A DNA stretch of 64,000 nucleotides from an uncultured Bacteroidales bacterium (GTDB taxonomy: Bacteria; Bacteroidota; Bacteroidia; Bacteroidales; VadinHA17). The first letter of the stretch is position 1. The number at the start of each line of letters is the position of its first letter. A program made the position numbers and the translations under genes. The notes under the pieces were generated by a model. It was not told the origin of the DNA. It worked only from the letters and a program-made list of their open reading frames with translations, and ran no database searches. Shown here piece after piece: positions 3,896 through 57,506 of the stretch. Location of the stretch: positions 28,415 to 92,414 of the forward strand of contig CAWFKG010000017.1 of the NCBI GenBank assembly GCA_963816365.1, written 5' to 3'.

Positions 3896-4232
3896 CTCAC
3901 CGCCGTCCCATAGACGTCAACTTAAGGAGTTGAATATAGTAGAATGTAAAATATTGGATATAAGCCTGATACATTTCCCCTCCTTTTGAAGGAGGGGTGG
4001 CCGGACCACTTTATAATTATGTTACAAATACTGATACCGGCCGGGGTGGTTGATTGTTTATTCAATTTCCTGATCTTTTCTTTTGAAGGTTTTTCTTATC
4101 TCATTTTTTACAAATTCAGGTTCCTGGAATACTAACGCTCAGCCCCCTTCAAAAGGGAGGGGAAACTTTTTTATGCAGTATCTCATTCATCCCCCAAAGC
4201 TTAAGTTGACGACTATGGGGATGGGGGTGAGT
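3896..4232. mobile_element. gene-less deletion derivative of the DUF559 hairpin cassette found at 56730-57506
   Basis: 3942-4131 is nearly identical to 56828-57018. The outer inverted repeat is CCATAGACGTCAACTTAAG / CTTAAGTTGACGACTATGG and the inner one is TTTCCCCTCCTTTTGAAGG / CCTTCAAAAGGGAGGGGAAA. Only about the last 25 codons of the DUF559 gene remain. Confidence 0.7.
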
Positions 4233-4347
4233 ATGTAATTGGCAAAAGAAATTCACAATCTACAAGATGTGTAAAAAGGTTATTACCAGCAGGAAGGGCA
4301 ATCAAATAATTTAATTAGCCTCTGTGTTACTCCTGTGTTGAAAAAAG

Positions 4348-5730
4348 CTAAAAGGGAAGTTTTATGGATTCATCCCTTATAATGAATTTTCTTTTCCCGG
4401 AAGGAAGCAAAGGTATTTCAGCAACTATATTGATCTCAATATCAACATCTTTACCGATCAAATCATCAAGACCTTCAGCAATTGCAGCTTCAGTTACTTT
4501 ATTATACCTGTCATTTACAACCAGCAGTACTTTTACCTTATCAGGTTTGGGTTGAACAACCTGGAATTGAATAATTTCTGCAAAATATTCAAAGAAAATT
4601 GTGAACGTATGAACAATTAGGAATTTCCCTGAAGGTGTAACCAGTATGTCTGAATTTCTTCCTTTAATCTGCCTGAAAGATGCTAAATTCATTTCTGAAT
4701 TATGACTTTCTTCCGATTTTTCAATTATATCCTGTGTGTCATAACGGATAAAAGGCATAGCAAGGTTCCATAGATCAGTTGTTATATGTCTTCCGAGAGT
4801 TGCAGGCGAGTCATTGTTATCAAGCACCTCAGTAATTGCATATTCCATAGAGGCAAGGTATGCATTTGCGCTCAGGACCTTCAAAAAACTGGGCACTGGC
4901 TTCGCAGCTGTACGAATCGAAAACCGGGGCGCCAAATGCCTTTTCGATTTTTTTACGGGTATCTGGAGTAAGAATATTCCCGGTCGTATTTATTGCCTTT
5001 GGAGAATATTGTATACTATTCCCATCATTGATCAAACGTGAAAGAAAAAGCAGGGGATCAGGGTAACATCTTATAAATTCGGGTTGAGATTGATTCAGTC
5101 TTTGTATTACATCTTTCAGATTTTCCGGTGTCAGATCCCTGATAAATATGTATTGGCTACGTGTAACAAGGTCCTGGAGTTTCTTATAAAAACCTGTCCG
5201 TGGATTCTGGCTAAGCTTCGCATAGGTGTCACCAAGACTGTATCCCATCCAGTACCAGCCTCGGATAGCACAGGCATAATTCATACTATAAGCTTCAGGA
5301 GTTATGAAATAGGTAAAAGGCGCTCCGGTTGAACCGCTTGAATTAAGACGAATACGCTTTCTCGGTGAGATATTCCTTGCAATATAATAATCCTGCAGGA
5401 TGTTTACGCAGATCATTTTTTGAAATAACCGGAATTTTTTGGAGATCAGCAATTTCTTTATATCAGAAGGTACAAGATGATGTCTTCTGAAAAAGATCAT
5501 GATAGAATGGAACATTTTCATATGCATGTCTTACCAGAAATCCGTAATCGTTCTTCCTGATATGTCTTCAGCTCTTCAGCCTTCCAGTACTGGCTTTCAA
5601 GAAGGAAGTGAAGTGAATCCGGAAATGGATTGTCCGGAAAAAATATCATTTGCCGGAAGAATGATATTTTCCTGTAACCAGTTATAAGACTGCCATTATT
5701 CCCGTAAAGCTTCGAGATCATTTTGATCAA
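4348..5730 (-). CDS. phenylacetate-CoA ligase / CapK-like adenylate-forming enzyme, 2 frameshifts
   Basis: ORFs 5518..5730, 4829..5527 and 4348..4935 join into about 460 aa. The AMP-binding motif NSSGSTGAPF is present and the C-terminal domain ends PLLPSGKRKFI. Confidence 0.7.
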
Positions 5731-5759
5731 CTATTTTACTTTGCTGCGCAGCGGAGTAG

Positions 5760-7925: not shown

Positions 7926-8045
7926 GACTTAGAGACTTAGAGACTCAGGGACTTAGAGATCGAAGTACTGAGCAATGTCCCTTTGTCCCTTAGTCTCTTA
8001 GTCTCTCAGTCTCTTAGTCTCTCAGTCTTCAGTCACTTAGTCTCC
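7926..8045. repeat. empty imperfect hairpin of the GACTTAG / CTTAGTCT 8-mer family
   Basis: The left arm at 7926-7959 and the right arm at 7986-8045 are complementary at about 29 of 34 aligned positions by eye. The loop is about 25 nt. The right arm ends on the stop codon of the 8045..9447 gene. Confidence 0.8.
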
Positions 8046-9447
8046 TAACCCCTGCCTTTAAGTCTGACATAATTCCACCCTACTATCAAAATAACAGCAG
8101 CAACCAGGTAAACCGGATACCATTTTTTACTTTTCATTTTATAGATCCCATATGCTGCCAGGATTAACAGAAATGGCTTTGCAGGATAGGAAAACCGGAC
8201 GGAAGTGAACATCATTGCCTTAAGCAAGACAAATTGATAACCAATAACAAATGCCAGTAATACAGCCATCTCCTTTCTTTTATACCGCAGGGAATAGTAT
8301 AAACCATAGAAGCTAAAAAAAGCCAATGCAATCCAGAAAATATTTCCTGCTATATGATAATAGTATTCGGAATGTGGCAGATCCCCGGCATTTGGGACAG
8401 TTACAACGCTTGGAAATGGGGAGATATATGACAGAACGGCAAATACAGGTGAGCCGACCAATGCCACAAATGGATTTATTCTTTCCATATATGATAACCG
8501 CTCCTGTGTGAATTCATCAACATTGGTATACTGGTTATAATATTCATCAAATCTGCCAGTTGATTTAAGAAAATATACAAAAGCAATAATAATAATACCT
8601 GCCAGTAAAATATTAAATATTAATGGCCTCCGTTTCAGCTGCATAAAGAATGAAAAACCCGATACCATTAATAGCAAGTATACTTACTGCTGGTCTGAAA
8701 GAAAAATAAGAGGATTATTAATAAAAGTTCCTTAAGCAAATAATGAAGTTTAAAAGATCTTTGTGTTTTAACCATTAGAATAAGGGCCTCGATCATTAAG
8801 AGAACCATAAGACTTTCCTTCAACATTATTTCTGAATAAAACCATGATATCGGATAGAGAACAAGCAATATTCCCGCAAGTCTGGCGGCGGGTCCTTCAA
8901 TCAGCAGACTAGCTAATTTATATCCCCTTACAACAACTATACTGCCTACAAAACAAAGGAAGATCTTTATTACTACCGGAGATAGTCCGAATATGAAAAT
9001 CGGGAACATCAGAAATGTTGAGAAACCTGTATTCGAAATATCATTCTTATAACTGGAAAAAATATGAAGATAAGCATCTCTTATTGTTTGATCTTTCCAA
9101 ATATCAACCGCCTCATTGGCAACACGATAATAAACCATTTCATCCCTTGCTCCTACTGTAAAAAACATATTCCAGGTTTTATAGGAAATTATGAGCAGAA
9201 TAAGCATAGCTACTATCCGGATTATAAATGCAATCCAGAACAACTTATAAACAAAACTTTTTTCATTGATCTGATTGCTGCTTTTAGACAGAATTCTTAT
9301 GCCTGAAATTGTCAGTATAATTATAAATGTTGCAGAAGCAATCCATTCAATACCATAGATTTTTCCAGGGAAAACCAGATATAGAACTATAAATAGAAGT
9401 AATATGAAAACAATAATTTTCCTCTCTATGTCAGAAGTCCAACCCAT
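8045..9447 (-). CDS. polytopic membrane protein, GT-C (ArnT/PMT_2-like) glycosyltransferase or polymerase, one frameshift at ~8670
   Basis: ORFs 8668..9447 and 8045..8677 carry at least 10 hydrophobic segments. The first-loop motif GARDEMVYYRVANEA resembles the DE..Y motif of ArnT-type enzymes. Confidence 0.45.
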
Positions 9448-9453
9448 CGGTTA

Positions 9454-10548
9454 TTATAAATTATTGGCGATTTCTAAAAATTGTTTTGCCCTGCATTCAG
9501 ATGATTGTCCGAATGCAATTTTTATTCCTCTGTCAATTATCCCTTTGCTTTTAGCTTTAATTACTGCCTCTTTGATTTTATTTACAAAATCAATCTTATC
9601 AGCTGCGATAAAAACAAAATCTTCAAAGACATTGTATTCCGCATCTAACCTATAACTCACAAAGGGTTTCCCAAGTGCCAGATATTGATACTGCTTATTA
9701 TTATTAAGATAATGAGCATATTCATGGTCAGGTTTTGCTGCAACCAGACCGATATCCCAGTTAATTACATATTTCCGGAAAATCATTGAATGGAATCAAA
9801 GCCAAGATATTTGACATTAGGATAAGTTAATAACTCATTCCACAAAAGCTGTTCTTCTTTATTTAAATCCAGTTTACCAGCAATTTCAAAATCGTATTCC
9901 GGAAGATTCTTTGCAATAAAAATCATTAATTCAATATCGATAACGTAGTCAATATTCCCAGCTAATCCGATTAACGGATTTCGTTTTTTCTGACAAAAGA
10001 TGCCCATTTATTATAATTCCACAAGTCAAGATCCACTGTATTTGGCCATAACTGTATATTGTCCGGAATAAATCATAATACTTTTTAAAATAATAACTGC
10101 AAAGGCTTTTGCTAATACCCAAAATCAGATTTGCCCGATTTATTATAGGAAATTCCTTTTTGAAATTGCCGGGATAAAGTAAAATACTCGGATCACGAAG
10201 CAGATAGATTAATTTTTGATCCCTTTTCAGGTATGGGAGAAGATAATACTGATTTGGATCAGTAAAAAAAATAAGTTCATAATGACGAAAAAACGAAATC
10301 CATTTAAAAGATCTCAGAAAATGTTCAAAAAATGTAAGAACTCTTATTTTTCTTAACTTTTCTACAGTCCAGAAATGATAAAAGTAAAATTTTATATCAA
10401 GAGATATATTTTTCTTTCTTCTGATATTCAAAACAGAGTTAAACAACAGAATATCAAGATCCGGGTTTAACTTATGAATAGATTCAATCGTTGCTCTGCG
10501 GGTATAGTTAATAAAATCAAGACTACTGCAGACTGTTAGAATTTTCAC
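9454..10548 (-). CDS. GT-B fold glycosyltransferase, 2 frameshifts
   Basis: ORFs 9949..10548, 9783..10007 and 9454..9786 read as one ~360-aa protein. The call rests on size, context and a C-terminal Rossmann-like segment only. Confidence 0.45.
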
Positions 10549-13550: not shown

Positions 13551-13570
13551 AGAATATTCTAGATAAAACT

Positions 13571-14602: not shown

Positions 14603-14626
14603 CTCAATGAGCTGATTGTCTGAAAA

Positions 14627-25765: not shown

Positions 25766-25768
25766 GTT

Positions 25769-25844
25769 TGAGGTTGAGGTTGAGGCTAATGAGGCTAAGG
25801 TTGAGGCTAGTTCTTTTAATCTTAACCTTAACCTTAACCTTAAA
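25769..25844. repeat. empty hairpin, (GAGGTT)n arm against (AACCTT)n arm
   Basis: Left arm 25769-25809, ~9-nt loop, right arm 25819-25844. There is one G-T wobble per 6-mer on the plus strand. The wzm stop codon (25840-25842) lies in the right arm. Confidence 0.8.
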
Positions 25845-26689: not shown

Positions 26690-26788
26690 GTTGAGGTTTA
26701 GTGTTTAAGGTGAGGCTGAGGTTGACAGTTGAGGATGAGGTTGAGGCTTAGTCTTCTTAGCTTTGGACCTTAACCTTAATCTTAGCCT
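26690..26788. repeat. hairpin of the same GAGGTT / AACCTT family with unequal arms
   Basis: Purine-rich arm 26690-26749 is followed directly by pyrimidine-rich arm 26750-26788. It spans the gap between the wzm start (26688) and the wzc-like stop (26782-26784). Confidence 0.75.
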
Positions 26789-29219
26789 TTATTCTTCACA
26801 TAATACTCCTTCGTCTTATCCGTCTTGCCATACTTACCATAATATTTACTGCCATAATAAGAAGTACCATACGAGTATCCATATCCGCTCATATAGCCAT
26901 ATCTGATACCGTATCCATAATATCCCGAAACACTTATATCGTTTAATATAATAGCCATATTCTTAAGTTCACCATGATTATTAAGCTGCTCTATCAGGTC
27001 GATAGTATTAAGTGAGGTATATCTCTGACGAACAATAAAGAGGTTAATATCTGCATATTCGGCAAGCAAAAGAGCATCTGTTACAATTGCTACAGGCGGA
27101 GTGTCAAAAATAATATAGTCATATTCTTTCTTTGCTCTCTGCATGAATTTTTTCATCAGATCAGTTTCAATAAGCTCAGCCGGGTTTGGAGGAACCGGTC
27201 CTGATGGAGCATAGAAAAGATTTTCCACCTGTGTCTTCTTTATTATTTCTTCATATTCACAGTTACCGCTGAGGTAGGTGCTCATACCCGGACTATTTTC
27301 AAATTCAAATATCTTGTTGATACGCGGTTTTCTGAGATCAAGTCCGATCAGTAAAACTTTCTTGCCAAGCATTGCTATTATAGCAGCCAGATTAATGGAA
27401 ATAAATGTTTTCCCTTCTGAGCTTATTGTAGATGATACAGCAATAACTGCAACTTTATTTTCCTTTACATAATATTTTAAAGCTGTGCGTACCGATCTGA
27501 AAGATTCGGATAAGGAAGATGCCGGTTTTTCGACAACAGGTATCTCATTTTTACTGTCACTGTGACTGATATATCCGATTACCGGAACTTTTGTCTTCCT
27601 GATCACATCTTTTTTATCAATTACCTTGTTGTTTAAAAAGTCAATCAGGGCTAATGCAGCAGCAGGCAACAAAAGTCCCAGAACAAGGGCTATCATCAGA
27701 TTTTTTCTTGTTTTTGGTTTTACAAGACCTCTTAATTGTGCATAGTCGATAGTACGGTTATCAGGCAATGTTGATGCCTGGGCAATACCTGATTCTGCAC
27801 GTTTTTCAAGAAGGTAGGTATAGATTGAATTGTTAAGATCGAACTGCCTTTGTATGTTAACAAATCTTTTTTCAATGGAAGGTAATTTGCTCATCTCTGT
27901 TTCATTTATTGATATTTTTTTCTCTGTTTCGGCTTTTGAAAGATTCAGACTTGGCAATGCAGTTTCTTATATTTTCCTTGAGAGCTTCACGTAGTTACTT
28001 CAGATTGTTTATCAATATGATTAAGTGCAGGCTGATTTCCTTCAATATTAAATCTAAGTTTTTCTTTTTCCTGCTTGAGATTGGAAAGATCATTAACAAG
28101 TCCAAGAAGCACCTGATCGGTTATTCCAATAACTGAAGGAGAGATAATTGTTCCTCTGGCATTCTTATCATTTACATATTCCAGCAAGGTAATTGTAATA
28201 TTGCAGCTGCAGTTCAACCTCCGCTTTATCATTATCAGCTTTTTTCAAGACTGTTCTGAATAATTGTATTCTCGTCCTTAAGATCAATAAAATTGTTTTC
28301 CATTCCTGAAATTCTCAAGATTTTTTGCAGCAACCTCAAGTGAATCGGATATTATATCAAGTTGTTCGTTAATAAATTTTATAGTTTGTTCGGCAATCTG
28401 TTTTTTAAAATCGAGACCATAATTGATATATACCTCCATAAGCATATTCAGATAATCGGCTTCCTGCTCAGGTACAAAACCTGAAACTGACAGGGTTACC
28501 AGTGAGGCATCTTTATCTCTAGGTGCCACAGATAAGTTTTGCCCGGTACTGGTTTGCAAGAGTTCCCGGATCTGTAAAATAAAAATAGTAACTATTTGAA
28601 TTCCCTTTGAATAAACAGGTTTAACCGGATTCCTTTTTTCAATAATAAAGTCAAATCCAAATTTAGAAAACCTTTCTCCAAAGTTCTTTTCCGTTTCAAA
28701 ATTCAACTTCCCATCAAGTTCAATCCTGTATTTTTGTTCACTTAATATTGTGATACTCACTTTAACTCCTTTTGGTTCAAGTTCAAGAGAATCATATACT
28801 ACTATGAAAGGACAGGTTTTATACATCATTGATTCAACAATTCCTCTTCTTCCCACACCAAAGTAAACAACATGAAAATCTTCAAGCTTCTTCATTACCA
28901 TATAATTCAGTCTGTATGACTTGAGGATCTCCATTTCATTTTTCAGGTTCTGCTGGCTCTTGAAAATATCTCCACCCGGGATGACACTTGTGGCAATACT
29001 GCCCATTCCCCCGTTCTGATCATCTTTTATAAGAAGTGTAGATGATACTGAATATATTCTTTGAGAATACCTGTTTATACCATAAGCCATCGACAATGAA
29101 ATAAACAATGCAACGGCAAACCAGTACCAGTTGCTCATAAAAAGAGACAGATACCGTTTTATGTCGATGCTCTCTTCTTCGGGAAAATTTGATTGAGGTG
29201 GGTAATTAGTTGGTTCCAT
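26782..29219 (-). CDS. polysaccharide co-polymerase / tyrosine autokinase (Wzc-like), several frameshifts
   Basis: Wzz-type N-terminus in ORF 28284..29219. P-loop SSTISSEGKTFISINLA, Walker B IFDTPPV and a Tyr-rich tail GYYGYGIRYGYMSGYGYSYGTSYYGSKYYGKY lie in ORF 26782..27957. Confidence 0.8.
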
Positions 29220-30129: not shown

Positions 30130-30156
30130 TTTAGTAATTATAAAGCAAAGTATGTG

Positions 30157-30328
30157 GAAAGATAAAAGGAAAAAGGGTAAAGTATGGTTAAAGATAAAAG
30201 ATAAAAGTCACAAGACAAAAGTAAGAGAGGTTGCTAATTAAGGTCTTCCTCATTTTACTTGTTTTTAACCAGATATTTTGTTAGTTCTTCAAACTTTTAT
30301 CTTTTTACTTTTGTCTTTTGTCTTGTTG
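30157..30328. repeat. purine-rich tract followed by a complementary pyrimidine-rich tract (AAAGATA / TTTTGTC repeats), forming a loose hairpin
   Basis: 30157-30230 (GAAAGATAAAAGG..AAGATAAAAGATAAAAGTCACAAGACAAAAGTAAGAGAGG) against 30247-30328 (CCTCATTTTACTTG..CTTTTATCTTTTTACTTTTGTCTTTTGTCTTG). The motif order is partly permuted. Confidence 0.55.
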
Positions 30329-30441
30329 TTCGGCAAGCTTCCGCCCCGTCAGTCACATCCTTAGAAGTGCCCGACTAGCCCTGAGAATCTATGTCTGCAG
30401 CGTTTCCAGCCTATATCTGAAACACGTCGCTCAATTCGTAA

Positions 30442-31123: not shown

Positions 31124-31670
31124 GGGCGCGAGGTATGCGGTTTGCGGTGTGCGGCAGAAGGTACGCAGAAGATTATTTGCTGTATGAGGTTTAATATAAA
31201 ATCATTATCTTTAGGCTCAGTGCTAATTTAAATTATTAATCTAAAACGCTGCATCATGGGAAATTTTCAAAAACTTCGTGTTTGGCAAATTGCCAAAGAA
31301 CTTGCCGTTCAAATTTACAAAATGACTCAAAATCTTCAGTTTAGAAAAGATCTGGGATTCAAAGATCAGATTCAAAGATCTGCAGTCAGTATTCCTTCTA
31401 ATATAGCTGAAGGAGATGAATCAGGTACTGATAAATTATCAGTCAGATATTTTTATATAGCTAAAGGATCTATAGCGGAACTTATGACACAATTAATAAT
31501 TGCCAACGAGATTGGTTATATTGATTCTGAAATTAAAAGTCAATTAGTTGATACCTGTGATAAATTATCTTCAATGTTGACTAGACTTATAAATGTAAGG
31601 CGTCAGATGAAATAAAATCGTCTATCCGAAAAACAAATACCGCATACCGCACGCCGCGTACCGCAAGCCC
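31124..31670. mobile_element. hairpin-bounded cassette a (four-helix-bundle cargo), arms (TGCGGTN)n / (ACCGCAN)n
   Basis: Left arm 31124-31169 and right arm 31637-31670 match at about 25 of 34 Watson-Crick positions by eye. Most of the remainder are G-T pairs. Confidence 0.65.
31256..31615 (+). CDS. four-helix-bundle protein (23S rRNA intervening-sequence protein family, PF05635/TIGR02436-like)
   Basis: Intact 119-aa ORF. KDQIQRSAVSIPSNIAEG and YIAKGSIAEL are the family hallmarks. Confidence 0.85.
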   Translation: MGNFQKLRVWQIAKELAVQIYKMTQNLQFRKDLGFKDQIQRSAVSIPSNIAEGDESGTDKLSVRYFYIAKGSIAELMTQLIIANEIGYIDSEIKSQLVDTCDKLSSMLTRLINVRRQMK

Positions 31671-31710
31671 TTTCAATAAGTAGAAAGAAATAACCTAACT
31701 TTACCGCAAT

Positions 31711-32699
31711 ATGAAAGACTTGTTGTTATTATTATGTCAATATCCATTTAAGGAACACAATCTTGACTTATTATCAAAGCTTCTCGATAAAGTTGAGGAT
31801 TGGCATAAGCTTGTTGAGCTGATAAACGCCCACGGCATAATTGCACTCGCTGCATATAATATTAAAGAATCAGGACTGGAAAGGAATGTTCCGAAGGACT
31901 CGATGGCAATTCTGGAAAACGGACTTATGAAGAGCATTGTCCGGAACACCTGGCTGACAGAACGCTGGAAAGAGGTAAATGATTTACTTTGTGAAGCGAA
32001 CATTAAACATATTCTGCTGAAAGGCATGGCACTTGAACATACCCTTTACGGATCAAGAGGTTTGCGTCAGATGAACGACAATGATATTCTGATAAAACCC
32101 GGAGAATCTGTCAGAGCCTGGGAACTGCTTCAAAGGAATGGCTTTATGCCAGAACCTGTTAAATCTCCCCTATTCAAAAAAATAATACTTAATTTCGGAC
32201 AGCACCTTCCGGCATTATATAAAAACGGTTATGCTCTTGAGATTCATTCTACTTTATTTGATCGACAGTAATCCGGATCGTAGAAAATTATGAAGATCCC
32301 TTTTCGGATGCTGTTGAAATAACCATAAAGAATAAAAAGGTTTTAATACTCTCAAAGGAGATGCAAAGTAAATATCTTTTGCACCATTTTGAACACCATA
32401 CTTTTTCAGGTGATTGTCAGTTACGTTTGTATACTGATATTAAACTGCTCGATGATTCAAGTCTTCTTAAGTTCCCTGACCGGTTTATATCAGAACCGTT
32501 GCAGGGTACTAAGAAAGAATATCGAAAACCCACGTACAAAGCCAGAATTCGTACTATCGAACCAAAATACCGCTTAAGATTCCTGATAGGTGATACCTTC
32601 CCTACAATGAAGTGGATGAAAGAACGTTATAAGTGCAGTATGATTAGGGTATTGCTGATGTATCCACTTAGAATCGGGAAACTCAGGTGGTTATTTTAA
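31711..32699 (+). CDS. uncharacterised nucleotidyltransferase family protein (PF14907-like), one frameshift at ~32270-32360
   Basis: ORFs 31711..32271 (ILLKGMALEHTLYGSRGLRQMNDNDILIKPGE..WELLQRNGF) and 32361..32699. Confidence 0.65.
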
Positions 32700-32762
32700 G
32701 GTCGAAGTTGAAGTTAAGATTGAGTCATAAAACCGCATACAGCAAACCACAAGCCCCATACC
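32699..32762. repeat. solo arms: a GAAGTT-type purine arm followed by a second (ACCGCA)-type arm
   Basis: GGTCGAAGTTGAAGTTAAGATTGAG (32699-32724) resembles 31024-31046. AAACCGCATACAGCAAACCACAAGCCCC (32729-32762) resembles the right arm of cassette a. Confidence 0.55.
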
Positions 32763-32906
32763 AGATTTCCATTCGTCAATATTCAATCAATTCTCATAAC
32801 CTAAATCCCAAAAAATACTATATTTGTAGGTTAACACCTAAATGATTACAATGCAACCTAAATAAATTGTTGCGGGTCTAAAAAGAAAATTGCAATACCA
32901 GGCGAC

Positions 32907-35676: not shown

Positions 35677-35783
35677 GCGTCAGGTGACGGGCGTCTGGTT
35701 GAGGCGACGGGCGGGAGGCAACACCCGATGCCTATTGCATGATGCTAAAGCCCGATGCCGTTGCCCGATGCCTGAAGCCGACT
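35677..35783. repeat. empty hairpin, (CGTCAGG/GACGGGC)n against (CCCGATG/CCTGAAG)n heptamers
   Basis: Left arm 35677-35722 starts at the base after the T9SS gene stop. The right arm is 35723-35783. Complementarity is imperfect. Confidence 0.7.
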
Positions 35784-36140: not shown

Positions 36141-36657
36141 GTGTTGCTGGTTGCTGGTTGCTGGTTACTTCTTACGATAATTAGCAATTAGCAACTAGCA
36201 ACTCGTAACTAGCAACTGGCTAAGTTTTCCAATCAGATTCTACATATTTGATGAAATTGTTAATCATTTTTCCTAAAGTGTCAAGATCCTTAAGAATTTC
36301 TACAAATTCTGAAATCTTTGGGTACAGTTCAATAACAGTAACTGCCTGATTAGTTGCTTCATCGCAGGAAGCTTGAGAATAAACTAAATAACGAATAAAC
36401 TCGGCTTTATACCTTCTTCTGCCGTATCCTTCGACAATATTATCCTTTACGCTTTTTGTCGATCTTCGGATTTGACTTCCTTGTTCATATAGTTCAAACT
36501 GAGGTAACTTAAGTGATGCCTTGTGTACCCTTATAGCTATAACATACGCCAGCTTATAAATTTCCAAATCTTTATAACTCTTCATAATTATTCCTTTCTA
36601 CTTTAGCACGAGCAACAAGCAACAAGCAACAAGCAACTAGAAACTAGAAACCAGAAC
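36141..36657. mobile_element. hairpin-bounded cassette b, arms (TTGCTGG)n / (AGCAACN)n with two alternative right-hand partners
   Basis: 36141-36167 can pair with 36178-36218 (local) or with 36605-36657 (across the gene). Confidence 0.65.
36220..36585 (-). CDS. four-helix-bundle protein (PF05635-like, second subfamily)
   Basis: Intact 121-aa ORF with GSQIRRSTKSVKDNIVEGYGRRRYKAEFIRYL. Confidence 0.8.
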   Translation of the reverse strand: MKSYKDLEIYKLAYVIAIRVHKASLKLPQFELYEQGSQIRRSTKSVKDNIVEGYGRRRYKAEFIRYLVYSQASCDEATNQAVTVIELYPKISEFVEILKDLDTLGKMINNFIKYVESDWKT

Positions 36658-39158: not shown

Positions 39159-39210
39159 CCCCGAAGCCTGATACCTGATGCCTGATGCCTGATGCCTGAT
39201 GCCTGATACC
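39159..39210. repeat. tandem heptamer array (CCTGATG/CCTGATA) x7, a single arm without an adjacent partner
   Basis: CCCCGAAGCCTGATACCTGATGCCTGATGCCTGATGCCTGATGCCTGATACC fills the whole gap between the convergent stops at 39158 and 39215. Confidence 0.85.
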
Positions 39211-39214
39211 TTTA

Positions 39215-42190: not shown

Positions 42191-42890
42191 TCTTTTCTTT
42201 GCCCCCCTGCCCGAGAAGTTAAATCTCTGTTTATCCTTTTGCCCCCCTGCCCCCCTAAAGGGGGGTTCGTACTCGTTATTTAAGTGAGTTTTGTATATTT
42301 GAAATATTGCTGCATTATTAATGAAAACAGTAATATCTAAAATTACTATGTATTATGGAGCGGATTCCGCGACATTAAGACACCCATATACTTAGAAGGA
42401 GTATGACTAAAGATGAAGGGGTACTATGGAAAAAGTTAAAGGACAGAAATGTATTTAGCAGTAAAATTTAGAAGACAACATCCTGTTTATAATTTCATTG
42501 TTGATTTTTATTGTCATGAATATAAGCTTGTCATAGAAGTTGATGGAGATATTCATAATGATGAAATTGCATACCAGTATGATTTGGGCAGAACTAAAGT
42601 GCTTAACAATTTTGGATTGAAAGTAATCCGATTTACAAATGATCAGATACTTTATAGTTTAGATTCTGTAATAGAGGAAATCCAAAGAGAAGTTGCGAAT
42701 CGAACTCCCCTTAGGGGGGCAGGGGGGCAAAAAAGAGATGAGCATAATAAAATTGGGCAGGGGGGCAAAAAAGAGATGAGTATAATAGAGTTGGGCAGGG
42801 GCAGAGATGAGCATAATAAAATTGGGCAGGAGGGCAAAAAGAGATGGCATTAGGATAATAATGCTGGGCAGGGACAAAAATAACAGAATG
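42191..42890. mobile_element. hairpin-bounded cassette with DUF559 cargo; arms are inverted arrays of a ~38-bp unit
   Basis: The left side has 2 units ending TTTTGCCCCCCTGCCCCCCTAAAGGGGGG (42191-42266). The right side has 5 units, GGGCAGGGGGGCAAAAAAGAGATGAGCATAATAAAATT and variants, starting at 42717, 42755, 42793, 42824 and 42866. Confidence 0.7.
42348..42853 (+). CDS. DUF559 (Vsr-like endonuclease fold) protein, 2 N-terminal frameshifts, C-terminus reads into the repeat arm
   Basis: ORF 42449..42853 (FRRQHPVYNFIVDFYCHEYKLVIEVDGDIH..LKVIRFTNDQI) parallels the intact copy at 56944..57327. Upstream frames give MYYGADSATLR.. and ..MTKDEGVLWKKLKDR. Confidence 0.65.
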
Positions 42891-44608: not shown

Positions 44609-44920
44609 TTACAGACTTAACGGCGCAAAGGCGCAACGGCGCAAAGGCGTGAAGAAATATCCAATTTCCTCCGCAATGATAAGTTGTGTTAACAACTCTG
44701 CACTTGAACCTTTTGCAATATAAAAATGACGGATAGATTGTTTATCTGTTTCAAGTTCATCACCTTCAGCAATATTTGAAGGTACGCTAACGGCAGATCT
44801 CTGAATCTGATCTTTCAATCCAAAGTCTTTTGAAAATGACAGCGTTTGAGTTAGTTTATAAATTCTCACAGCTAATTCCTTAGCCAGTTGCCACACACGA
44901 AGCTCTTGAAAATTTCCCAT
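44609..44920 (-). pseudogene. 3'-truncated four-helix-bundle gene; the last 16 codons are read from the repeat arm
   Basis: The first 88 aa are about 80% identical (70 of 88 by hand count) to the protein of 31256..31615. Helix 4 is missing and is replaced by FFTPLRRCAFAPLSL, encoded by the (GGCGCAAA)n arm. Confidence 0.75.
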
Positions 44921-45098
44921 AATACAGCGATATTAGATTTATAAATAAAAGTTAGCACGTAGGATAAAGATATAACTTTTCTCTGAGATTAACTGGATGT
45001 TAGTTGTTTCCTAAAATTGCATATCGTAATCCCAATAATTATTAATAAACTTTCTCAGCAAGGCCGTTGCGCCGTTGTGCCGTTGTGCCGTTGTGCCA
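44617..45098. mobile_element. hairpin-bounded cassette c, arms (GGCGCAAN)n / (GCCGTTGN)n 8-mers
   Basis: 44617-44650 TTAACGGCGCAAAGGCGCAACGGCGCAAAGGCGT against 45062-45098 GGCCGTTGCGCCGTTGTGCCGTTGTGCCGTTGTGCCA. Confidence 0.7.
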
Positions 45099-46730: not shown

Positions 46731-46855
46731 TTTATTATCAGAATTAAATTAATGGGTGTAAAGTTAGAGAAAATTAGTAAAAGGACACACGACACACGAC
46801 TCACGACACACGACTCAAATACGAAGAATTGTTTTGACTTTTTAAAAATGATCTT

Positions 46856-46863
46856 TAAATTTG
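46856..46863 (+). promoter_or_regulatory. candidate -7 box TAAATTTG inside cassette d
   Basis: It matches TAnnTTTG and lies 38 nt upstream of the ATG at 46902, internal to the left arm. Confidence 0.4.
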
Positions 46864-46901
46864 ATTTGGAATAAAAAGTAATCACTTAATCTCGCTGTGC
46901 T

Positions 46902-47261
46902 ATGAGCAATTATGAAAATTTGAAGGTTTGGCATAGAGCCGTTGAACTTGCAGTTTCAATCTATAAGTTAACAGGAACGAACAAATCATTTGTTAAAGAT
47001 TTTGGATTAAAAGATCAAATACAGAGATCATCTGTGAGTATTTCCAGTAATATTTCCGAAGGTGATGAACTCGGAACTGATAAGCAAGCTATCAGGCAAT
47101 TCTTTATCGCAAAAGGATCGGCAGCAGAACTTTATACTCAGCTTACTATTTCCTCTAAAATAGGATACCTGAATGAGGAAGAAGCCAAGTATTATTTGAA
47201 TGAATGCAAAGGCATTTCATCCATGCTGACTAATCTCATTAAATCGAGATCATCAGAATAA
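46902..47261 (+). CDS. four-helix-bundle protein (PF05635-like)
   Basis: Intact 119-aa ORF with KDQIQRSSVSISSNISEG and FIAKGSAAEL. Confidence 0.85.
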   Translation: MSNYENLKVWHRAVELAVSIYKLTGTNKSFVKDFGLKDQIQRSSVSISSNISEGDELGTDKQAIRQFFIAKGSAAELYTQLTISSKIGYLNEEEAKYYLNECKGISSMLTNLIKSRSSE

Positions 47262-47312
47262 ATTATAATAGATTCTATTTAGTTCTTTAAATTCTCTATT
47301 CTGCACGGTGAT

Positions 47313-47760
47313 TTATTCACCGTGTGTCGTGAGCCGTGCGTCGTGTGTCCAAATCATCTTCTTCCCAAACCCCAATCTGTTATCCGTCATCTTAATATGA
47401 GTAAGTTTTACGACCCAGAGATGAGTATCCATGAGCGCTGCCGGAGGAAATTTTTTGAGATACGCCCATTTTGCTTTTGATAACAATTCTGCCTTCAGGT
47501 TCTGAGATTATTCCCTGAAATTGTATTCCGCGGATCTTTCCTATTACCATAGTCTCAAGAACAACCGATCCTGCAACCAACGGATTTTTGACGAATTCTT
47601 TCCCGTGACGGGTATCAGCATCAGTAGTGAAGACCAGCATATTTTCTTCTTCAAGATAAACATAAAAACAATTAGCACACCAGGGTTCATTTTCAACTGT
47701 CGTGGCAATTGTAAGAACATGATGCTTCCTGAAGAACTTTATGATCGTGATGTCAACCAT
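47313..47760 (-). CDS. YhbP-like (UPF0306, pyridoxamine 5'-phosphate oxidase fold) protein, one frameshift; the last 13 codons come from the cassette arm
   Basis: ORF 47392..47760 (HHVLTIATTVENEPWCANCFYVY..IRGIQFQG) plus a second frame reading KAKWAYLKKFPPAALMDTHLWVVKLTHIKMTDNRLGFGKKMIW, then THDARLTTHGE*. Confidence 0.7.
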
Positions 47761-47786
47761 TATTCATCCATCTGAAACCATTACTG

Positions 47787-48501: not shown

Positions 48502-49246
48502 TCACGCCGCTGAGCCAGAGGGGACCACAGAGGCGAAGAACAGTTGACAAGACCATTTTTGCATCAGCAGTCTCTCCGTCAGAACTCCAACCCCTGTCGA
48601 AGCCATCTCCCTTATCACCTCCACCTTCCTGTTAACCGGAATCACAACTTCTTTCGGATCAATGAGCCAGAGAGATGCTCTGGCCGGCGCATAGCTGATC
48701 AGTCCTGCTGCCGGATAGACATTCAAAGACGATCCTACCACAACAAAAATATCTGCATTCCGCCGTAAGATTCACCGCCTCATCCATCATCGGAACCTGC
48801 TTCACCAAACCAGACAATATGAGGACGAAGCTGGCTTCCTTTTTCACATTTGTCACCCGGATTAATATCCTTATAACCAATGTCATATATCAGCGATTCA
48901 TCCATACTGCTTCGTGCTTTTGTGAGTTCCCCGTGAAGATGGACGATTTTTGTGCTGCCGGCTCTTTCATGCAGATCATCAATATTTTGCGTAATGATCT
49001 GTACATCAAAATATTTTTCAAGCTTTGCCAACCCGAAATGACCTTCATTTGGCTTGCTGGAGGCCAGCTGTCGTCTTCTTTCATTATAGAATCTCAGAAC
49101 AAGGTCCCTGTTCTTCATCCAGGCCATCAGGTGTTGCAACTTCAGTTACATCGTACTCTTCCCAGAGTCCGCCGGAATCCCTGAAGGTCTTTATGCCGCT
49201 TTCGGAGCTCATGCCGGCACCGGTTAAGACTGACTAGTTTCTTCAT
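48502..49246 (-). CDS. cobB: NAD-dependent protein deacylase (Sir2/CobB family), several frameshifts
   Basis: ATG at 49246. The frames give [47 protein letters not shown] and [12 protein letters not shown]. Confidence 0.8.
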
Positions 49247-49315: not shown

Positions 49316-49571
49316 GACTCAGAGACTCTAGGGACTAAGGGACTGAGGGACTGCACACCTAAATAGTCTAGGATTGAGTGACATATCGACAGTCTTCCAT
49401 TATTTTCTCATACAGATCCATCAGGGAAAGCTCTTCGTCATTATTGCAACTTAAGAGAATCAGAGGTTTTGTAGGGAAGATATACTAAAGAGTAGTCTAA
49501 CCAGTATGCTTCATTACAGACTCTTCGTCTCTAGTCCCTATAGTCCCTAAGTCTCTTAGTCTCTTAGTCTG
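49316..49571. mobile_element. decayed cassette: arms of the GACTAAG / CTTAGTCT family around a ~40-codon remnant of a four-helix-bundle gene
   Basis: Arms at 49316-49352 and 49518-49571. The minus-strand remnant 49368-49457 reads ..LLSCNNDEELSLMDLYEKIMEDCRYVTQS*, which resembles the C-terminus LSCDYMTEQEHFDLNETYDKILGKL of 54156..54527. Confidence 0.6.
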
Positions 49572-49642
49572 TTAATTATTCGGGATTTTACTATCTTTGT
49601 CCGAATTTTTTATAATAACAAGTTTTATTAATCGCAGATCCA

Positions 49643-53158: not shown

Positions 53159-54098
<940 letters not shown>

Positions 54099-54101
<3 letters not shown>

Positions 54102-54710
54102 CTGACGGACTTAGTGACTAAGGGACTTAGTGACTAAGGGACTCAGAGACGAGGGTTACCAACTCCAATTCTCTGGATGGAGGGACATGTTGACAAGCTT
54201 TCCTAATATTTTGTCATAGGTTTCATTAAGGTCAAAATGTTCTTGTTCGGTCATATAGTCACAACTTAACGAGAAATCCAACCAGGTTTGAGTTTCTGCT
54301 GCTTCGCCCTCCGAATCCGTGAGTTTTGCAATAAATGATTTTGGATATCTTCTTTTTCTGAAGGCTTCTGCTAGATTTGAGCATACTGACCTGGAAGATC
54401 TTCTTATTTGATCTGTTAAAGAATAAATCTCTTCTTTGGGAAATCTCTTGGTTAGTTCAAAAATCTTCATTGCTACATCGAACAAAAGACAATACACGTC
54501 TAATTCCTTGTGAGATCTGATTTTCATTTTTCAGCGATTTAAGTAAGACAATTATTATTCCAATCTAAAATTAGAACAAATACTTGAATCCTATTCATAA
54601 TTTGTTTTATATTCTCATCATCCCTATAGTCTCTTAGTCTCTTAGTCTCTTAGTCTCTTAGTCTCCTTAGTCTCTTAGTCTCTTAGTCTCTTAGTCTCTT
54701 AGTCTCTCTT
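54099..54710. mobile_element. hairpin-bounded cassette e, arms GACTTAGTGACTAAGG.. / (CTTAGTCT)n
   Basis: The left arm 54099-54155 begins with the uxs TGA. The right arm 54621-54710 is about 10-11 tandem 8-mers. Confidence 0.7.
54156..54527 (-). CDS. four-helix-bundle protein (PF05635-like, second subfamily)
   Basis: Intact 123-aa ORF with TDQIRRSSRSVCSNLAEAFRKRRYPKSFIAKL. Confidence 0.8.
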   Translation of the reverse strand: MKIRSHKELDVYCLLFDVAMKIFELTKRFPKEEIYSLTDQIRRSSRSVCSNLAEAFRKRRYPKSFIAKLTDSEGEAAETQTWLDFSLSCDYMTEQEHFDLNETYDKILGKLVNMSLHPENWSW

Positions 54711-54766: not shown

Positions 54767-54770
54767 AACC

Positions 54771-56717
54771 ATGATAGACCGCTCAACCATAGAACGAATT
54801 CTGGATGCCGCTCAGATTGTTGATGTGGTACAGGAGTTTGTTCCACTGAAGAAACGGGGAGTGAACTACCTGGGGTTATGTCCATTTCATAATGAAAAAA
54901 CACCTTCATTCACAGTATCTCCATCGAAAGAGATTTTCAAATGTTTTGGATGCGGAAAAGTGGGAAACTCGGTCAATTTTGTAATGGAACATGAGCATCT
55001 GACCTACCCCGAAGCGCTTAAATACCTTGCAAAGAAATATCACATTGAGGTCATTGAAAAAGAGCTTTCACAGGAAGAGCTGGAAAAACAGAATGAGAGG
55101 GAGAGCCTCCTTGTGGTTTCATCATATGCTGCCAGGCAGTTCTCTGAAAACCTGTTTCATAATGACGAGGGAATATCTATCGGACTTACCTATTTCAGGG
55201 AACGGGGCTTCCGTCAGGATACATTGAAAAAATTTGAGGTAGGTTACTGCTTTGAGAAACGGGACGCATTCTCGAAAAAGGCTCTTGAAGATGGATACAA
55301 ACAGGATTTTCTTGTAAAGACCGGTCTTTCAGTTCAGCATGAAGACCACATCTTCGACAGGTTCAGCAGCAGGGTGATGTTCCCTATACATTCTCTTTCC
55401 GGACAGGTACTCGGTTTCGGAGGCAGAATACTTAAAACTGATGTCAAAACAGCTAAATATCTGAATTCTCCCGAATCAGAGATATATCATAAAAGCAGAA
55501 TATTATACGGAATATACCAGGCGCGGAAATCGATAACACAGGAGGACAAATGTTATCTGGTTGAAGGTTATACCGATGTTATGTCGTTACATGAAGCAGA
55601 TATTGAAAATGTTGTGGCATCATCGGGAACCTCTCTGACGCAGGAACAGGTAAGGCTTATAAAAAGATTTACCCAGAATATTACAATTCTTTATGATGGT
55701 GACCCTGCCGGGATTAAAGCCTCCATAAGGGGTATTGACCTGGTGCTTGAAGAGGGGATGAATGTCAAGATTGTCCTTATCCCCGATAATGAGGACCCTG
55801 ATTCTTATTCAAAAAAATTAAGCAATGAGGAATTCCGGAAATTCCTTAAGGAGAATGAAACTGATTTCATACGTTTTAAGACGCAGCTTCTTCTCTCTGA
55901 AGCAAGTAATGATCCGGTCAAAAGAGCTGATCTTATACGCGATGTTGTAAAGTCAATTGCTGTTATCCCCGAAGCTATAACAAGGACAGTATATATAAAG
56001 GAATGCAGCACCGTACTTGAGGTCAGTGAGCCCATCCTATATCATGAAGTCAATAAGCTCCGGCAGCATAAAAGTTTTCAGGACAGGAATAAATATCCGG
56101 GTCCCGAGGATCTTCCTGTTCCTCCGCCGGTTATAGTCAAACCTGTTCAACGCGAGACTGTTACGTATTATTCTGAAAAGGAGATAATCAGACTGCTTTT
56201 AAAATTCGGAAATGTAGAATTTGAAAGGACCCTGAATAAAGAAGATGGCAAAGAGGAGATGCTATCTGTAGCTGATTATATTGTCAGGGAGATAACATCT
56301 GACGATCTTTTGTTTGACGACAGCGTATGCTCAAAGATTTTTGCCGATTTCAGATTTCATGTCGAGCATGGTCTGATCACAGGTGACAAACAATTCGTAA
56401 AACATGGAGATCCTGAGATCTCAAGTCTTTCAGCCGATCTGCTTGCCGACTCGCATGAGCTGAGCAGGATCTGGAAGGATAAGCAAACTTTCGTTGAGAC
56501 GGAAGATATGAAGCTGAAAGAGATTGTAGGCGATGCCGTCCTCAAATTCAAGAGTGATAAAATAATGATTAAGAGAAAAGAGATAATGTCACTTCTTGAA
56601 GAAGCCGTAAAAGCCAACGATACTGAGAAGATACTACAGCTGCAAAAAAGATATGCAAATCTTAGTGTTGTCCTGGGATTAATTTCAAGGAAACTGGGGA
56701 ACAGGATATTGCTGTAA
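54771..56717 (+). CDS. dnaG: DNA primase
   Basis: Intact 648-aa ORF. The zinc ribbon is CPFHNEKTPSFTVSPSKEIFKCFGCGKVG and the TOPRIM motifs are EGYTDV..YDGDPAG. Confidence 0.9.
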   Translation: MIDRSTIERILDAAQIVDVVQEFVPLKKRGVNYLGLCPFHNEKTPSFTVSPSKEIFKCFGCGKVGNSVNFVMEHEHLTYPEALKYLAKKYHIEVIEKELSQEELEKQNERESLLVVSSYAARQFSENLFHNDEGISIGLTYFRERGFRQDTLKKFEVGYCFEKRDAFSKKALEDGYKQDFLVKTGLSVQHEDHIFDRFSSRVMFPIHSLSGQVLGFGGRILKTDVKTAKYLNSPESEIYHKSRILYGIYQARKSITQEDKCYLVEGYTDVMSLHEADIENVVASSGTSLTQEQVRLIKRFTQNITILYDGDPAGIKASIRGIDLVLEEGMNVKIVLIPDNEDPDSYSKKLSNEEFRKFLKENETDFIRFKTQLLLSEASNDPVKRADLIRDVVKSIAVIPEAITRTVYIKECSTVLEVSEPILYHEVNKLRQHKSFQDRNKYPGPEDLPVPPPVIVKPVQRETVTYYSEKEIIRLLLKFGNVEFERTLNKEDGKEEMLSVADYIVREITSDDLLFDDSVCSKIFADFRFHVEHGLITGDKQFVKHGDPEISSLSADLLADSHELSRIWKDKQTFVETEDMKLKEIVGDAVLKFKSDKIMIKRKEIMSLLEEAVKANDTEKILQLQKRYANLSVVLGLISRKLGNRILL

Positions 56718-56729
56718 GACATACAGTAC

Positions 56730-57506
56730 TCACCCCCTTCATCCTCCATAGAGAGTGGCGGGGAGGCAAAACCGTCAACTTAAGAAGTTGAATATAGTAA
56801 AATATGGAGAGAGTTTAGTACAAAACAGAATGTAAAATATTGGATATAAGCCTGATACATTTCCCCTCCTTTTGAAGGAGGGGTGGCCGGACCACTTTAT
56901 AATTATGATACAAATACTGATACCGGCCGGGGTGGTTGATTGTTTATTCAAATTCCGGATCTTTCATTTTGAAGATTTTTCTTATCTCATTTTTTACGAA
57001 TTCAGGTTCCTGGAATACCAGCCTGTTTTCAAACCTTAGTACTGAGAATCCAAGGCCTTCAAGATATTGATCTCTTTTTTTATCTTTTTCTATTTTATGA
57101 TATTCACCATGCGGATTTCCATCAAGCTCAATTACCAGTTTTTCTGAAGTACAACAAAAGTCAACTATGTAATTACCTATACTATGTTGTCTTCTGAATT
57201 TTCTTTCATTAAGCTTTTTTGATTTTAAAATGTTCCATAACTCAGCCTCAGCAGAAGTGGACTTGTTCCTAAGAGATGATCTAAAAAACTTAAGGCTTTT
57301 TTTGTTAAAGAGGATTTTGTTTTTCATGCCAATAAAGGTAAGAAAGAAATCAATGAATCAACCACCCCGATCGGGAAATAAAACACTGTATATATCAGAT
57401 AATCAATCGTCCCGACCACCCCTCCTTCAAAAGGAGGGGAAACTTTTTTATGCAATATCTCGTTCATCAATAGAGATTAAGTAGACGGCATGGGGTGGGG
57501 AGGTGA
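56730..57506. mobile_element. hairpin-bounded cassette with intact DUF559 cargo and three nested inverted repeats
   Basis: The outer pair is 56730-56786 / 57467-57506. The middle pair is 56858-56896 / 57409-57444, and each member contains its own CCCCTCC..GGAGGGG hairpin. The inner pair is 56919-56941 / 57354-57376. Confidence 0.75.
56944..57327 (-). CDS. DUF559 (Vsr-like endonuclease fold) protein
   Basis: Intact 127-aa ORF with AEAELWNILKSKKLNERKFRRQHSIGNYIVDFCCTSEKLVIELDGNPH..LRFEN. Confidence 0.8.
   Translation of the reverse strand: MKNKILFNKKSLKFFRSSLRNKSTSAEAELWNILKSKKLNERKFRRQHSIGNYIVDFCCTSEKLVIELDGNPHGEYHKIEKDKKRDQYLEGLGFSVLRFENRLVFQEPEFVKNEIRKIFKMKDPEFE

Follow-up and report, generated by a model that had tools for sequence, protein, structure and literature searches.

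Five small genes in a 64,000-nucleotide stretch of the genome of an uncultured Bacteroidales bacterium (contig CAWFKG010000017.1, positions 28,415 to 92,414; the whole stretch is called the window below) encode four-helix-bundle (4HB) proteins of the family PF05635/TIGR02436 (S23p, "23S rRNA IVS protein"), and each gene lies between two inverted arrays of a short tandem unit. On balance, we lean towards the reading that two sorts of small selfish cassette are present in the window, some copies complete and others truncated or without a gene, and that the arms of the first kind, the intervening sequence (IVS) type, are cut by RNase III. The IVS-type cassette comprises a PF05635 gene and its own leader between two inverted arrays of a 7-8-nt unit, sits right after host stop codons, and on this reading decays to hairpin-only and single-arm relics. 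The second kind is an unrelated DUF559 element with conserved composite terminal inverted repeats and a derivative in the window that resembles a MITE (a miniature transposable element with inverted repeats). What is new here is that the IVS design bearing an open reading frame (ORF) is generalized to an intergenic cassette that is widespread and follows definite sequence rules. The window has a GC content of ~38%, and the host genes around the loci are ordinary, encoding DnaG primase, a sugar transferase, a DksA-type zinc-finger protein, a rhodanese, riboflavin synthase, and a NusG/UpxY-like protein. Of the 38 gaps between host genes in the window that are 60 nt or longer, 14 hold a listed locus.

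Inverted short-unit arms were found on both sides of all five 4HB genes by Tandem Repeats Finder (TRF) and an inverted-repeat search, as an earlier sequence-only reading of the window had claimed, and the arm units named there (TGCGGT, GTTGCTG, GGCGCAAM, GACACAC, and GACTAAG) were recovered; at least five unit types are present within the 64 kb. Cassette A (31125..31672, plus strand) runs from a 5′ arm of GGTATGC-type heptamers (31125-31175) through a leader (31176-31255) and the 4HB gene (31256-31615) to a 3′ arm of the ACCGCAT type (31626-31672); it has a Pfam E value of 1.4e-34, TRF arrays, inverted repeat I6, and 28-29 arm-to-arm base pairs (bp) in whole-cassette folds, and a cassette of the same arm type occupies A's own site in L002 (L numbers denote fetched loci). 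Cassette B (36143..36656, minus strand; Pfam E 1.7e-22) contains arrays at 36143-36217, (GTTGCTG)n and then (TAGCAAC)n, the gene at 36220-36585 on the minus strand, and a further array, (AGCAACA)n, at 36611-36656; its arms were likewise detected by TRF, with 21 arm-to-arm bp on the minus strand and only 2 on the plus strand. Cassette C (44609..45097, minus strand; inverted repeat I3) is 3′-truncated: the arm of GGCGCAAM octamers (44619-44649) is fused into the end of its ORF (44609-44920), which matches only profile positions 1-85 of 106; the leader (44921-45062) and the second arm (45063-45097, GCCGTTGT) follow. Cassette D (46783..47350, plus strand; Pfam E 3.4e-31) has a GACACAC arm at 46783-46817, the gene at 46902-47261, and a GTGTGTC arm at 47321-47350, which together form inverted repeat I2 with 93% complementarity (z −7 to −8); the same arm type accompanies D-like proteins at other sites in L064, L067, and L072. 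Cassette E (54095..54707, minus strand; Pfam E 2.2e-29, TRF score 153) has an arm of GACTAAGG octamers at 54095-54143, the gene at 54156-54527 on the minus strand, and an arm of ten TAGTCTCT units at 54613-54707, with 41-45 arm-to-arm bp.

The genes at 31256, 36220, 44609, 46902, and 54156 are members of PF05635/TIGR02436 (E 1e-22 to 1e-34), and their proteins score above the curated cut-offs of both models (80-119 bits against 33.8 for Pfam and 86-114 bits against 24 for TIGR02436). Gln38, Ile39, Arg41, Ser42, Ser45, Asn49, and Glu52 are invariant in all five proteins, forming a Q-I-x-R-S-x2-S-x3-N-x2-E motif that agrees with the GxxRxxxSxxxNxxE quoted for the family (PMC3936711). Their closest solved relative by sequence similarity is XCC0516 (PDB 2GSC, E 7e-16). 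The folding comparison with dinucleotide shuffles came out as the sequence-only reading had expected, with arm pairs 3-8 standard deviations better than shuffled sequence (z −3 to −8). In minimum-free-energy folds of whole cassettes (516-651 nt), arm-arm pairing of 21-45 bp, spanning ~450 nt, was obtained in nine of ten strand cases. At gathering thresholds, an Rfam scan of the window and seven related loci assigned neither arms nor cassettes nor the leader hairpin (see below) to any family. No rRNA was matched in the window (Rfam, 0 matches), the cassette flanks being protein genes, and PADLOC gave no defence-system match for the 4HB proteins.

The same architecture extends through the family. 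We took 79 loci with A-, C-, or D-like 4HB genes from contigs, one genome per species, mostly of Bacteroidales and also of Desulfobacterales, Geobacteraceae, Leptospirales, Nitrospirae, and Saprospiraceae; eight further, distant homologues (30-44% identity) came from finished plasmids, and ten more collinear genomes were obtained via an exact-protein look-up of the DksA-like protein. A flanking inverted repeat with a score of at least 28 was found in 89% of the 75 4HB homologues with usable flanks, compared with 0.8% of 365 control positions within the same loci (Mann-Whitney p 2e-38 for arms against controls), so that the association between family and inverted repeats holds beyond the window. 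Arrays with a period of 7, 8, or 9 lie on both sides of 71 of 83 genes and on one side of the other 12, with unit copy numbers from 2 to more than 30. Six of the eight plasmid homologues have such arms; the Nostoc plasmid genes carry (GGGAAAA)n and (CCCCTTT)n arms, armed genes lie between cmr2 and cmr3 in a Picosynechococcus plasmid and between cas6 and cas4 in a Pseudanabaena plasmid, and a Gemmatirosa plasmid holds another 4HB gene with arms. 4HB genes have repeatedly been reported as "CRISPR-associated", for which insertion between cas genes, as at cmr2/cmr3 and cas6/cas4, offers a simple reason. The antisense orientation to both neighbours noted in the window is present there, whereas 66 related loci are divided among sense (24), antisense (19), divergent (15), and convergent (8) arrangements; an antisense bias is not general.

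ORF-bearing 23S rRNA IVSs are known from Leptospira, Coxiella, Brucella, and alphaproteobacteria, where they lie in helix 25 or 45 and are excised by RNase III. In the Azospirillum lipoferum plasmid (L088), a PF05635 gene lies within the large-subunit rRNA gene (Rfam RF02541, 2139 bits) in the order arm, 20 nt, gene, 32 nt, arm, and the arms consist of GGACGGA/GGACAGA heptamers, TCAGAGGACGGATGACAGAGGACGGAGGACAG and its complement; by its sequence, the insert is a classical helix-45 IVS that shares the cassette layout. In the Coxiella IVS, 2-3 tandem GACAGAT heptamers stand 5′ of the S23p ORF in the stem arms; strains differ in how many copies they have, and the first of the repeats is where RNase III cuts (PMC4990558). 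Both kinds of insert thus have an S23p/PF05635 protein gene in the loop of a long stem formed by complementary ends, and both have a sporadic, insertion-like distribution. These likenesses support the view that the 4HB cassettes of the window are the same type of element as ORF-bearing 23S rRNA IVSs. In contrast to the rRNA IVSs, the window copies sit in intergenic DNA directly after the stop codons of protein genes, in either orientation, and are flanked by DnaG, sugar transferase, DksA-like, and riboflavin synthase genes instead of rRNA helices; many unit types occur in one genome, the Bacteroidales copies have their own leader and a likely promoter, and RNase III cleavage, established for the IVSs, is a prediction for the window cassettes. 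The sequence-only reading knew of no description of such a system, and we found none in the published literature, nor any paper linking such repeats to the 4HB gene family in general, although subscription journals were thinly covered and an earlier description is possible.

Many of the fetched loci are collinear with the window, and alignment of orthologous spacers revealed that occupied and empty sites differ between these relatives. Site S1 is flanked by the orthologues of the genes at 40929 and 43058. Here, L004 and L074 have an empty, armless spacer of 100-120 nt, L003, L024, L038, and L078 have a complete 4HB cassette with an arm beginning at the host stop codon, and the window has a DUF559 element (element G). 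Site S2 shows more states: it is empty in L198, with 57 nt from stop codon to promoter; three leftover CGGTATG units remain in L195; in L189, a 45-nt loop without a gene separates the two CGGTATG arms; L004 shares these arms and the secondary solo arm with L189, has a right flank 95% identical, and carries the full gene; the window has a different cassette (C, with GGCGCAAM units, on whose locus this series bears), and L196 has a DUF559 element. Because a single slot is found empty, full, with arms only, or with leftover units, arms and gene come and go together and, to judge from these spacers, are gained and lost as one unit. Likewise, the position 3′ of a 784-aa gene is occupied by the B-type cassette in the window and by a C-like cassette with other arms in L035; their junctions lie within a few bases of each other, and the 4HB lineages are different. 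The lineage with an A-like protein and TGCGG-type arms was found at three different sites, which indicates that the cassette unit relocates. The same intergenic slots are reused repeatedly. Together with the Azospirillum layout and the Coxiella heptamers, these differences between relatives uphold the claim of the sequence-only reading that IVS-like insertions exist in ordinary intergenic DNA.

In the same genomes, the slot beside S2 is either vacant or occupied by a 4HB cassette, by solo arrays, or by a GIY-YIG gene. In L189 (3378-3997), the arms of a 4HB cassette enclose the intrinsic terminator of the host's DksA-like gene. Just after 3378 in L190, L194, and L196, solo G-rich arrays lie between the stop codon of the DksA-like gene and its terminator, that is, in the 3′ untranslated region (UTR) of the host mRNA. 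Small GIY-YIG nuclease genes occupy 4HB/DUF559 slots of collinear relatives at 3581-3853 in L193 and 6081-6365 in L197; their own palindromic repeat (GATTGCTTCGCTTCGCTCGCAATGAC) is present in several tandem copies and one inverted copy, and these genes are a third class of small selfish gene in these slots.

The hairpin-only sites that had been reported at 7926, 25769, 26690, 30157, and 35677 are real according to TRF and folds, as is the single arm at 39159. At 7926..8044, four GACTTAGA units, a 17-nt loop, and (GTCYCTTA)8 belong to the same unit family as cassette E and fold at −49.7 kcal/mol (TRF arrays; z −4.2 to −4.6). The hairpin at 25768..25843 consists of (TGAGGCTAAGGT)n and then (TTAACC)n (TRF, shuffle test, and fold), and that at 26690..26789 of (GTTGAG)n and then (ACCTTA)n (TRF and fold), the latter pairing far better on the plus strand (z −3.2 against −0.9). 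An A-rich hairpin at 30147..30329 has (AAAGATA)n and (CTTTTGT)n arms (TRF, inverted repeats I7 and I21, and fold). At 35677..35779, units of the GGCGTCA type face units of the CCCGATGCC type directly 3′ of the stop codon of the 784-aa gene (TRF and fold), and an orthologous hairpin-only element stands at this position in L035, again right after the upstream stop codon. Close by, at 35978-36088 on the plus strand, an unannotated 36-aa ORF (MMTDIPPNPDPRG...TPFQSPFGDKPF) is followed by a terminator hairpin, and both are kept in the orthologous spacer of L035. The arm pair of the GACTAAG family at 49316..49574, ~170 nt apart (inverted repeat I17), gives 31-34 arm-to-arm bp, but the gene remnant described between the arms is only weakly supported: what lies between them may be left over from an E-like 4HB gene, with an alignment score reached by 27 of 1000 shuffles. 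The single arm (GCCTGAT)6.6 at 39166..39211, between convergent genes (TRF score 78), has the unit found in the 3′ arms of AGGCRTC-type cassettes at other loci. The tract at 32699..32765 (ACCGCATACAGCAAACCACAAGCC), also reported as a single arm, is a doubtful, degenerate arm at best, seen in the sequence alone with no TRF array. The loci with only a hairpin or a single arm are best explained as cassettes that have decayed.

Although the units differ between cassettes, the arms follow common sequence rules. Over 100 arrays, the unit conforms to GGYNYRA(N), in which position 4 and, in octamers, position 8 are free. In 62 loci, purines predominate in the 5′ arm and pyrimidines in the 3′ arm, with the reverse in 4 (p 2e-14); the arms being inverted, both strands show the same polarity. 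In 64 of 73 3′ arms, C is more frequent than G. The outer arm edges lie at a median of 8 nt from a neighbouring stop codon and 98 nt from a neighbouring start codon. Each 5′ arm also tends to match its own partner: among 66 3′ arms, its own ranks first in 35 loci and third or better in 55. The more the proteins diverge, the less alike the arms are (Mantel r 0.24, 0 of 999 permutations), and the arms differ between copies, unlike the conserved terminal repeats of the DUF559 element. The arms are hypervariable by slippage; ten population samples of one cassette differ, in ~400 nt flanks, only by a 14-nt, two-unit arm deletion.

The encoded protein is under purifying selection: dN/dS, the ratio of nonsynonymous to synonymous change, is 0.06-0.19 between cassette orthologues or paralogues, with synonymous sites often saturated, and we infer a role of its own for the protein. 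Bacteroidales copies share a conserved spacer from the 5′ arm to the ATG (TATCTTTA..GTGCTAA..AAATCGCTGCATYATG), and their 4HB gene probably has its own promoter inside the arms. Seventeen loci (L005, L007, L009, L012, L015, L018, L020-L023, L029, L030, L032, L035, L037, L042, and L074) share a leader hairpin ~45 nt 5′ of the start codon, with an invariant GUGGAAU loop and an 8-bp stem with eight covarying pairs, for which Rfam had no match; in the window, cassettes D and E retain only a TTGGAAT remnant of it. In deltaproteobacteria and cyanobacteria, the arms abut the 4HB ORF, unlike in Bacteroidales.

We picture the action of the arms as follows. In a transcript that crosses a 4HB cassette, the arms would pair into a long imperfect duplex, which RNase III would cut, as in the established biology of rRNA IVSs; such cutting would account for the tolerance of inserts in rRNA, in cas operons, and in 3′ UTRs. 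Since repeat-built arms can pair in any register, pairing would survive frequent slippage. The purine-first polarity would keep the C-rich arm of a host transcript paired with its already transcribed partner, while the cassette's own transcript, lacking the 5′ arm, would expose a C-rich 3′ tract suited to Rho. In our own view, the polarity may thus serve to hide the arm from Rho in host transcripts, and polarity and Rho together would insulate the neighbours in both directions.

Several results weigh against this picture. A stem that works in one RNA should show strand-specific wobble, but G:U and A:C mismatches are balanced whether the gene (227 vs 198) or host transcription (128 vs 132) is taken as the reference, and by fold energies neither strand folds better. 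The idea of the sequence-only reading that the stems may let host read-through transcripts be processed or terminated gains no support from these sequence tests. The arms are only ~75% complementary, their complementarity hardly drops when the unit order in one arm is permuted (mean z 0.44), and the variable unit positions are shared by both arms (r 0.50 vs −0.08 in rotated registers; p 1e-10); the arms therefore match as unit arrays and not as a selected base-paired stem. The conserved leader lies inside the arms, so the gene's own mRNA probably has no 5′ arm and no stem. Signs of recent movement were also sought: two identical proteins were traced to 24 and 12 contigs, with one context each, the 4HB cassettes yielded no transposase and no near-identical multi-site copies, and no target-site duplication was visible at the S1 and S2 junctions. 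The wobble balance, the permutation result, and the unit grammar fit recognised-unit arrays or arm-to-arm conversion at least as well. Action of the arms in DNA is thus a real though minor possibility, as binding-site arrays for a unit-reading factor, possibly the encoded 4HB pentamer; the arrays would then be the terminal repeats through which the cassette is excised, integrated, or copied, with the RNA hairpin incidental. The conserved core of GGYNYRA(N) with its fixed variable positions mirrored in both arms, the irrelevance of unit order, and the symmetric mismatch spectra would all suit DNA, and the Avd-type four-helix-bundle relatives are known to bind both nucleic acid and a reverse transcriptase. 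Arm type and protein lineage are inherited together even though synonymous sites are saturated, a covariation that is possibly plain co-descent. As quoted in PMC4990558, Ralph and McClelland proposed that the ORF serves mobility, which would also suit this reading. The missing target-site duplications, the single context of identical proteins, and the lack of defined ends count against a role in DNA, and copy numbers from 2 to more than 30 misfit a fixed pentamer footprint.

It is improbable that the hairpins are host elements, such as terminators, insulators, mRNA-end stabilisers, or G-quadruplex repeats of the kind known from Xanthomonas and Nostoc, with selfish genes lodged in or near their loops. 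Hairpin-only loci are about as common in the window as full cassettes, that of 35677..35779 keeps its position in L035, L189 and L004 have common arms around different interiors, solo G-rich arrays precede the terminator of the DksA-like gene in several genomes, and Xanthomonas has 70-75 convergent pairs of GGGAATC arrays placed ~28 nt behind upstream ORFs (PMC4692102), all of which would suit host elements. However, truly empty sites have no arms, arm type tracks protein lineage across sites, decay intermediates exist (the truncated cassette C and the S2 series), and at least five unit types in 64 kb do not amount to a single host motif; the GACACAC, GTTGCTG, and GACTAAG arms contain no G-runs, which rules out quadruplexes as a general cause. 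Very improbable is an invertible switch, in which recombination between the inverted arms would flip the gene and its promoter. The near-random orientation relative to neighbours (the 24 sense and 19 antisense loci above) would be expected of a switch, and DUF559 domain-containing proteins are enriched, with an odds ratio of 14, among the predicted targets of programmed inversion (PMC9881135), an enrichment that probably reflects the repeats of the DUF559 element. No recombinase gene adjoins the cassettes, however, the imperfect arms are short for homologous recombination, no lineage stands in two orientations at one site among the sampled genomes, and the ten population samples of one cassette share a single orientation. 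Chance, low-complexity composition, or a long-read assembly artefact has a negligible likelihood: the source is indeed a long-read assembly with many split ORFs, but the same architecture recurs in finished genomes, finished plasmids, and short-read assemblies of many projects, and the shuffle test and the control positions described above refute it. Other candidates were rejected as well, namely integron cassettes (the window has no attC or intI), retrons (no adjacent reverse transcriptase), repetitive extragenic palindromes (REPs) with their associated RAYT transposases (the arms differ between cassettes instead of sharing one REP-type palindrome), and the repeats of type III toxin-antitoxin systems (units of 7-8 nt, not ~36 nt).

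To our knowledge, the very large family PF05635/TIGR02436 has no known function, no origin of 23S rRNA IVSs or of prokaryotic heptamer repeats has been known since 1990, and the intergenic heptamer repeats of cyanobacteria and Xanthomonas have no known source. The 4HB cassettes, with units of period 7-8, a median distance of 8 nt from stop codons, and purine- or G-first pairs, resemble the GGGAATC repeats of Xanthomonas and the short tandemly repeated repetitive (STRR) sequences of cyanobacteria (GGGGAYT), which are intergenic 7-nt tandem units of variable copy number near the 3′ end of an upstream ORF, often in convergent, G-first inverted pairs (PMC4692102). Those repeats have been described as one genome-wide, quadruplex-forming unit with no tie to a gene family, whereas the 4HB units vary by cassette, are in many cases unable to form quadruplexes, and bracket a specific gene. 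In Xanthomonas campestris, a four-unit GGGAATC array lies on the annotated start of XCC0516, at XCC0516/XCC0517, 6 nt from bccP (supplementary table of PMC4692102); XCC0516 is the crystallised PF05635 protein mentioned above, and the authors of that study drew no link between the repeats and the family. The Avd protein of diversity-generating retroelements (bAvd) has a homologous four-helix-bundle fold, and cassette E alone gives a weak bAvd/Avd profile match, with 20 bits against the cut-off of 80 for the Avd equivalog NF033474; unlike in those retroelements, the immediate neighbours in the window are housekeeping genes, none of them a reverse transcriptase, and there is no template/variable repeat pair.

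One cassette design therefore links the PF05635 family, rRNA IVSs, and heptamer repeats, and it is the rule for the family in the sampled clades. Its sequence rules (unit grammar, arm polarity, and placement after stop codons) are concrete and directly testable, and repeat finders may misread the arms of 4HB cassettes. A bolder and doubtful suggestion is that PF05635 proteins read their own 7-8-nt unit, GGYNYRA(N), so that gene and inverted arrays would form a self-recognising protein-repeat element from which heptamer repeats originate. That element would invade intergenic DNA as well as operons and rRNA helices, and its decay would leave hairpin-forming heptamer repeats such as STRR and GGGAATC arrays; if this were true, the origin of rRNA IVSs, the function of a large family, and heptamer repeats would share one cause.

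The DUF559 elements form a separate class. The sequence-only reading had counted three DUF559 units among the 4HB cassettes, but they are a separate mobile element with conserved, non-tandem terminal repeats. Short-period tandem arms are absent from the units at 56944 and 3896, which instead carry long composite inverted repeats (TTTCCCCTCCTTTTGAAGGAGGGGTGGCCGG ... GGGGTGGTTGATT); of the three, only that at 42348 has 8-nt units, of which there are two. Element F (56727..57510, minus strand) has composite terminal inverted repeats of ~150 nt around the DUF559 gene at 56944-57327 (Pfam DUF559 E 5e-34), which read ACTCACC..CCATAG.CGTCAACTTAAG..TTTCCCCTCCTTTTGAAGGAGGGGTGGCCGG..GGGGTGGTTGATT (inverted repeats I1 and I22). 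Element H (3893..4232, minus strand) is a gene-less, MITE-like copy of element F with an internal deletion, as found by alignment to F; it retains F residues 103-127 (25 C-terminal codons) at 84% identity and gives 77-82 arm-to-arm bp in folds. Element G (42191..42880, plus strand; inverted repeats I4, I12, and I13) has TTTTGCCCCCCTGCCCCCCTAAAGGGGGG / CCCCTTAGGGGGGCAGGGGGGCAAAA arms around a DUF559 ORF at 42449-42853, which matches profile positions 32-108 (Pfam E 5e-25). Its N-terminal part is out of frame, a break that is possibly an assembly error; as the assembly is a long-read metagenome-assembled genome (MAG) in which many ORFs are split, lone frameshifts are not to be taken as pseudogenes. 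The arms of G (GCCCCCCT x2) are unlike those of F and H, and the same arms were found in the L061 homologue. At 42717-42850, element G contains a 38-nt tandem repeat in 3.8 copies, each reiterating the downstream arm motif GGGCAGGGGGGCAAAAA, and a similar reiteration of ~70 nt is present in L196.

An F-type inverted repeat flanks 95% of 59 DUF559 homologues from metagenomes, compared with 0.9% of controls. Element F recurs at ~90% nucleotide identity in ~80 metagenome contexts, and the similarity ends at the element borders (ACTCACC..CCATAGCCGTCAACTTAAG ... CTTAAGTTGACGGCTATGG..GGTGAGT); the host flanks of the copies are either unrelated or 75-79% identical and found elsewhere in the window. 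No target-site duplication was found at 20 aligned ends, the ends being fuzzy, and no transposase in or beside the elements. From these copies, the DUF559 (Vsr-like nuclease) element is recently mobile and distinct from the 4HB cassettes. PADLOC gave only weak DpdF and homing-endonuclease matches for the DUF559 proteins. Compared with MITEs, other elements with terminal inverted repeats, and free-standing homing-endonuclease genes, the DUF559 element is similar in its conserved terminal repeats, its gene-less derivative (3893-4232), its many near-identical copies in unrelated contexts, and its nested and tandem insertions, and GIY-YIG and DUF559 nuclease genes occur in the 4HB cassette slots of relatives; it differs in that neither a transposase nor a target-site duplication was found. 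The 4HB cassettes differ further from such elements, having variable tandem-repeat arms and no recent copies, and their protein has no known nuclease or recombinase activity, unlike homing endonucleases.

Some DUF559 copies are nested in 4HB-type tandem arms and others lie in tandem. Among L116 (~1372-2061), L090 (134-748 and 1674-1860), and L168, a single DUF559 element lies within a tandem arm of the GCCGTTGC type, and two contigs have two DUF559 elements side by side. In the window, a long, dense run of genes on the minus strand occupies 8045-25500, and none of the listed cassettes or hairpins falls between 8045 and 25768; unlike this run, the second half of the window is rich in cassettes. 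At 48780-49139 on the minus strand, a SIR2-family ORF matches only part of its profile and the adjacent genes are split into short calls, which fits long-read homopolymer errors and calls for caution with the apparent pseudogenes of this MAG.

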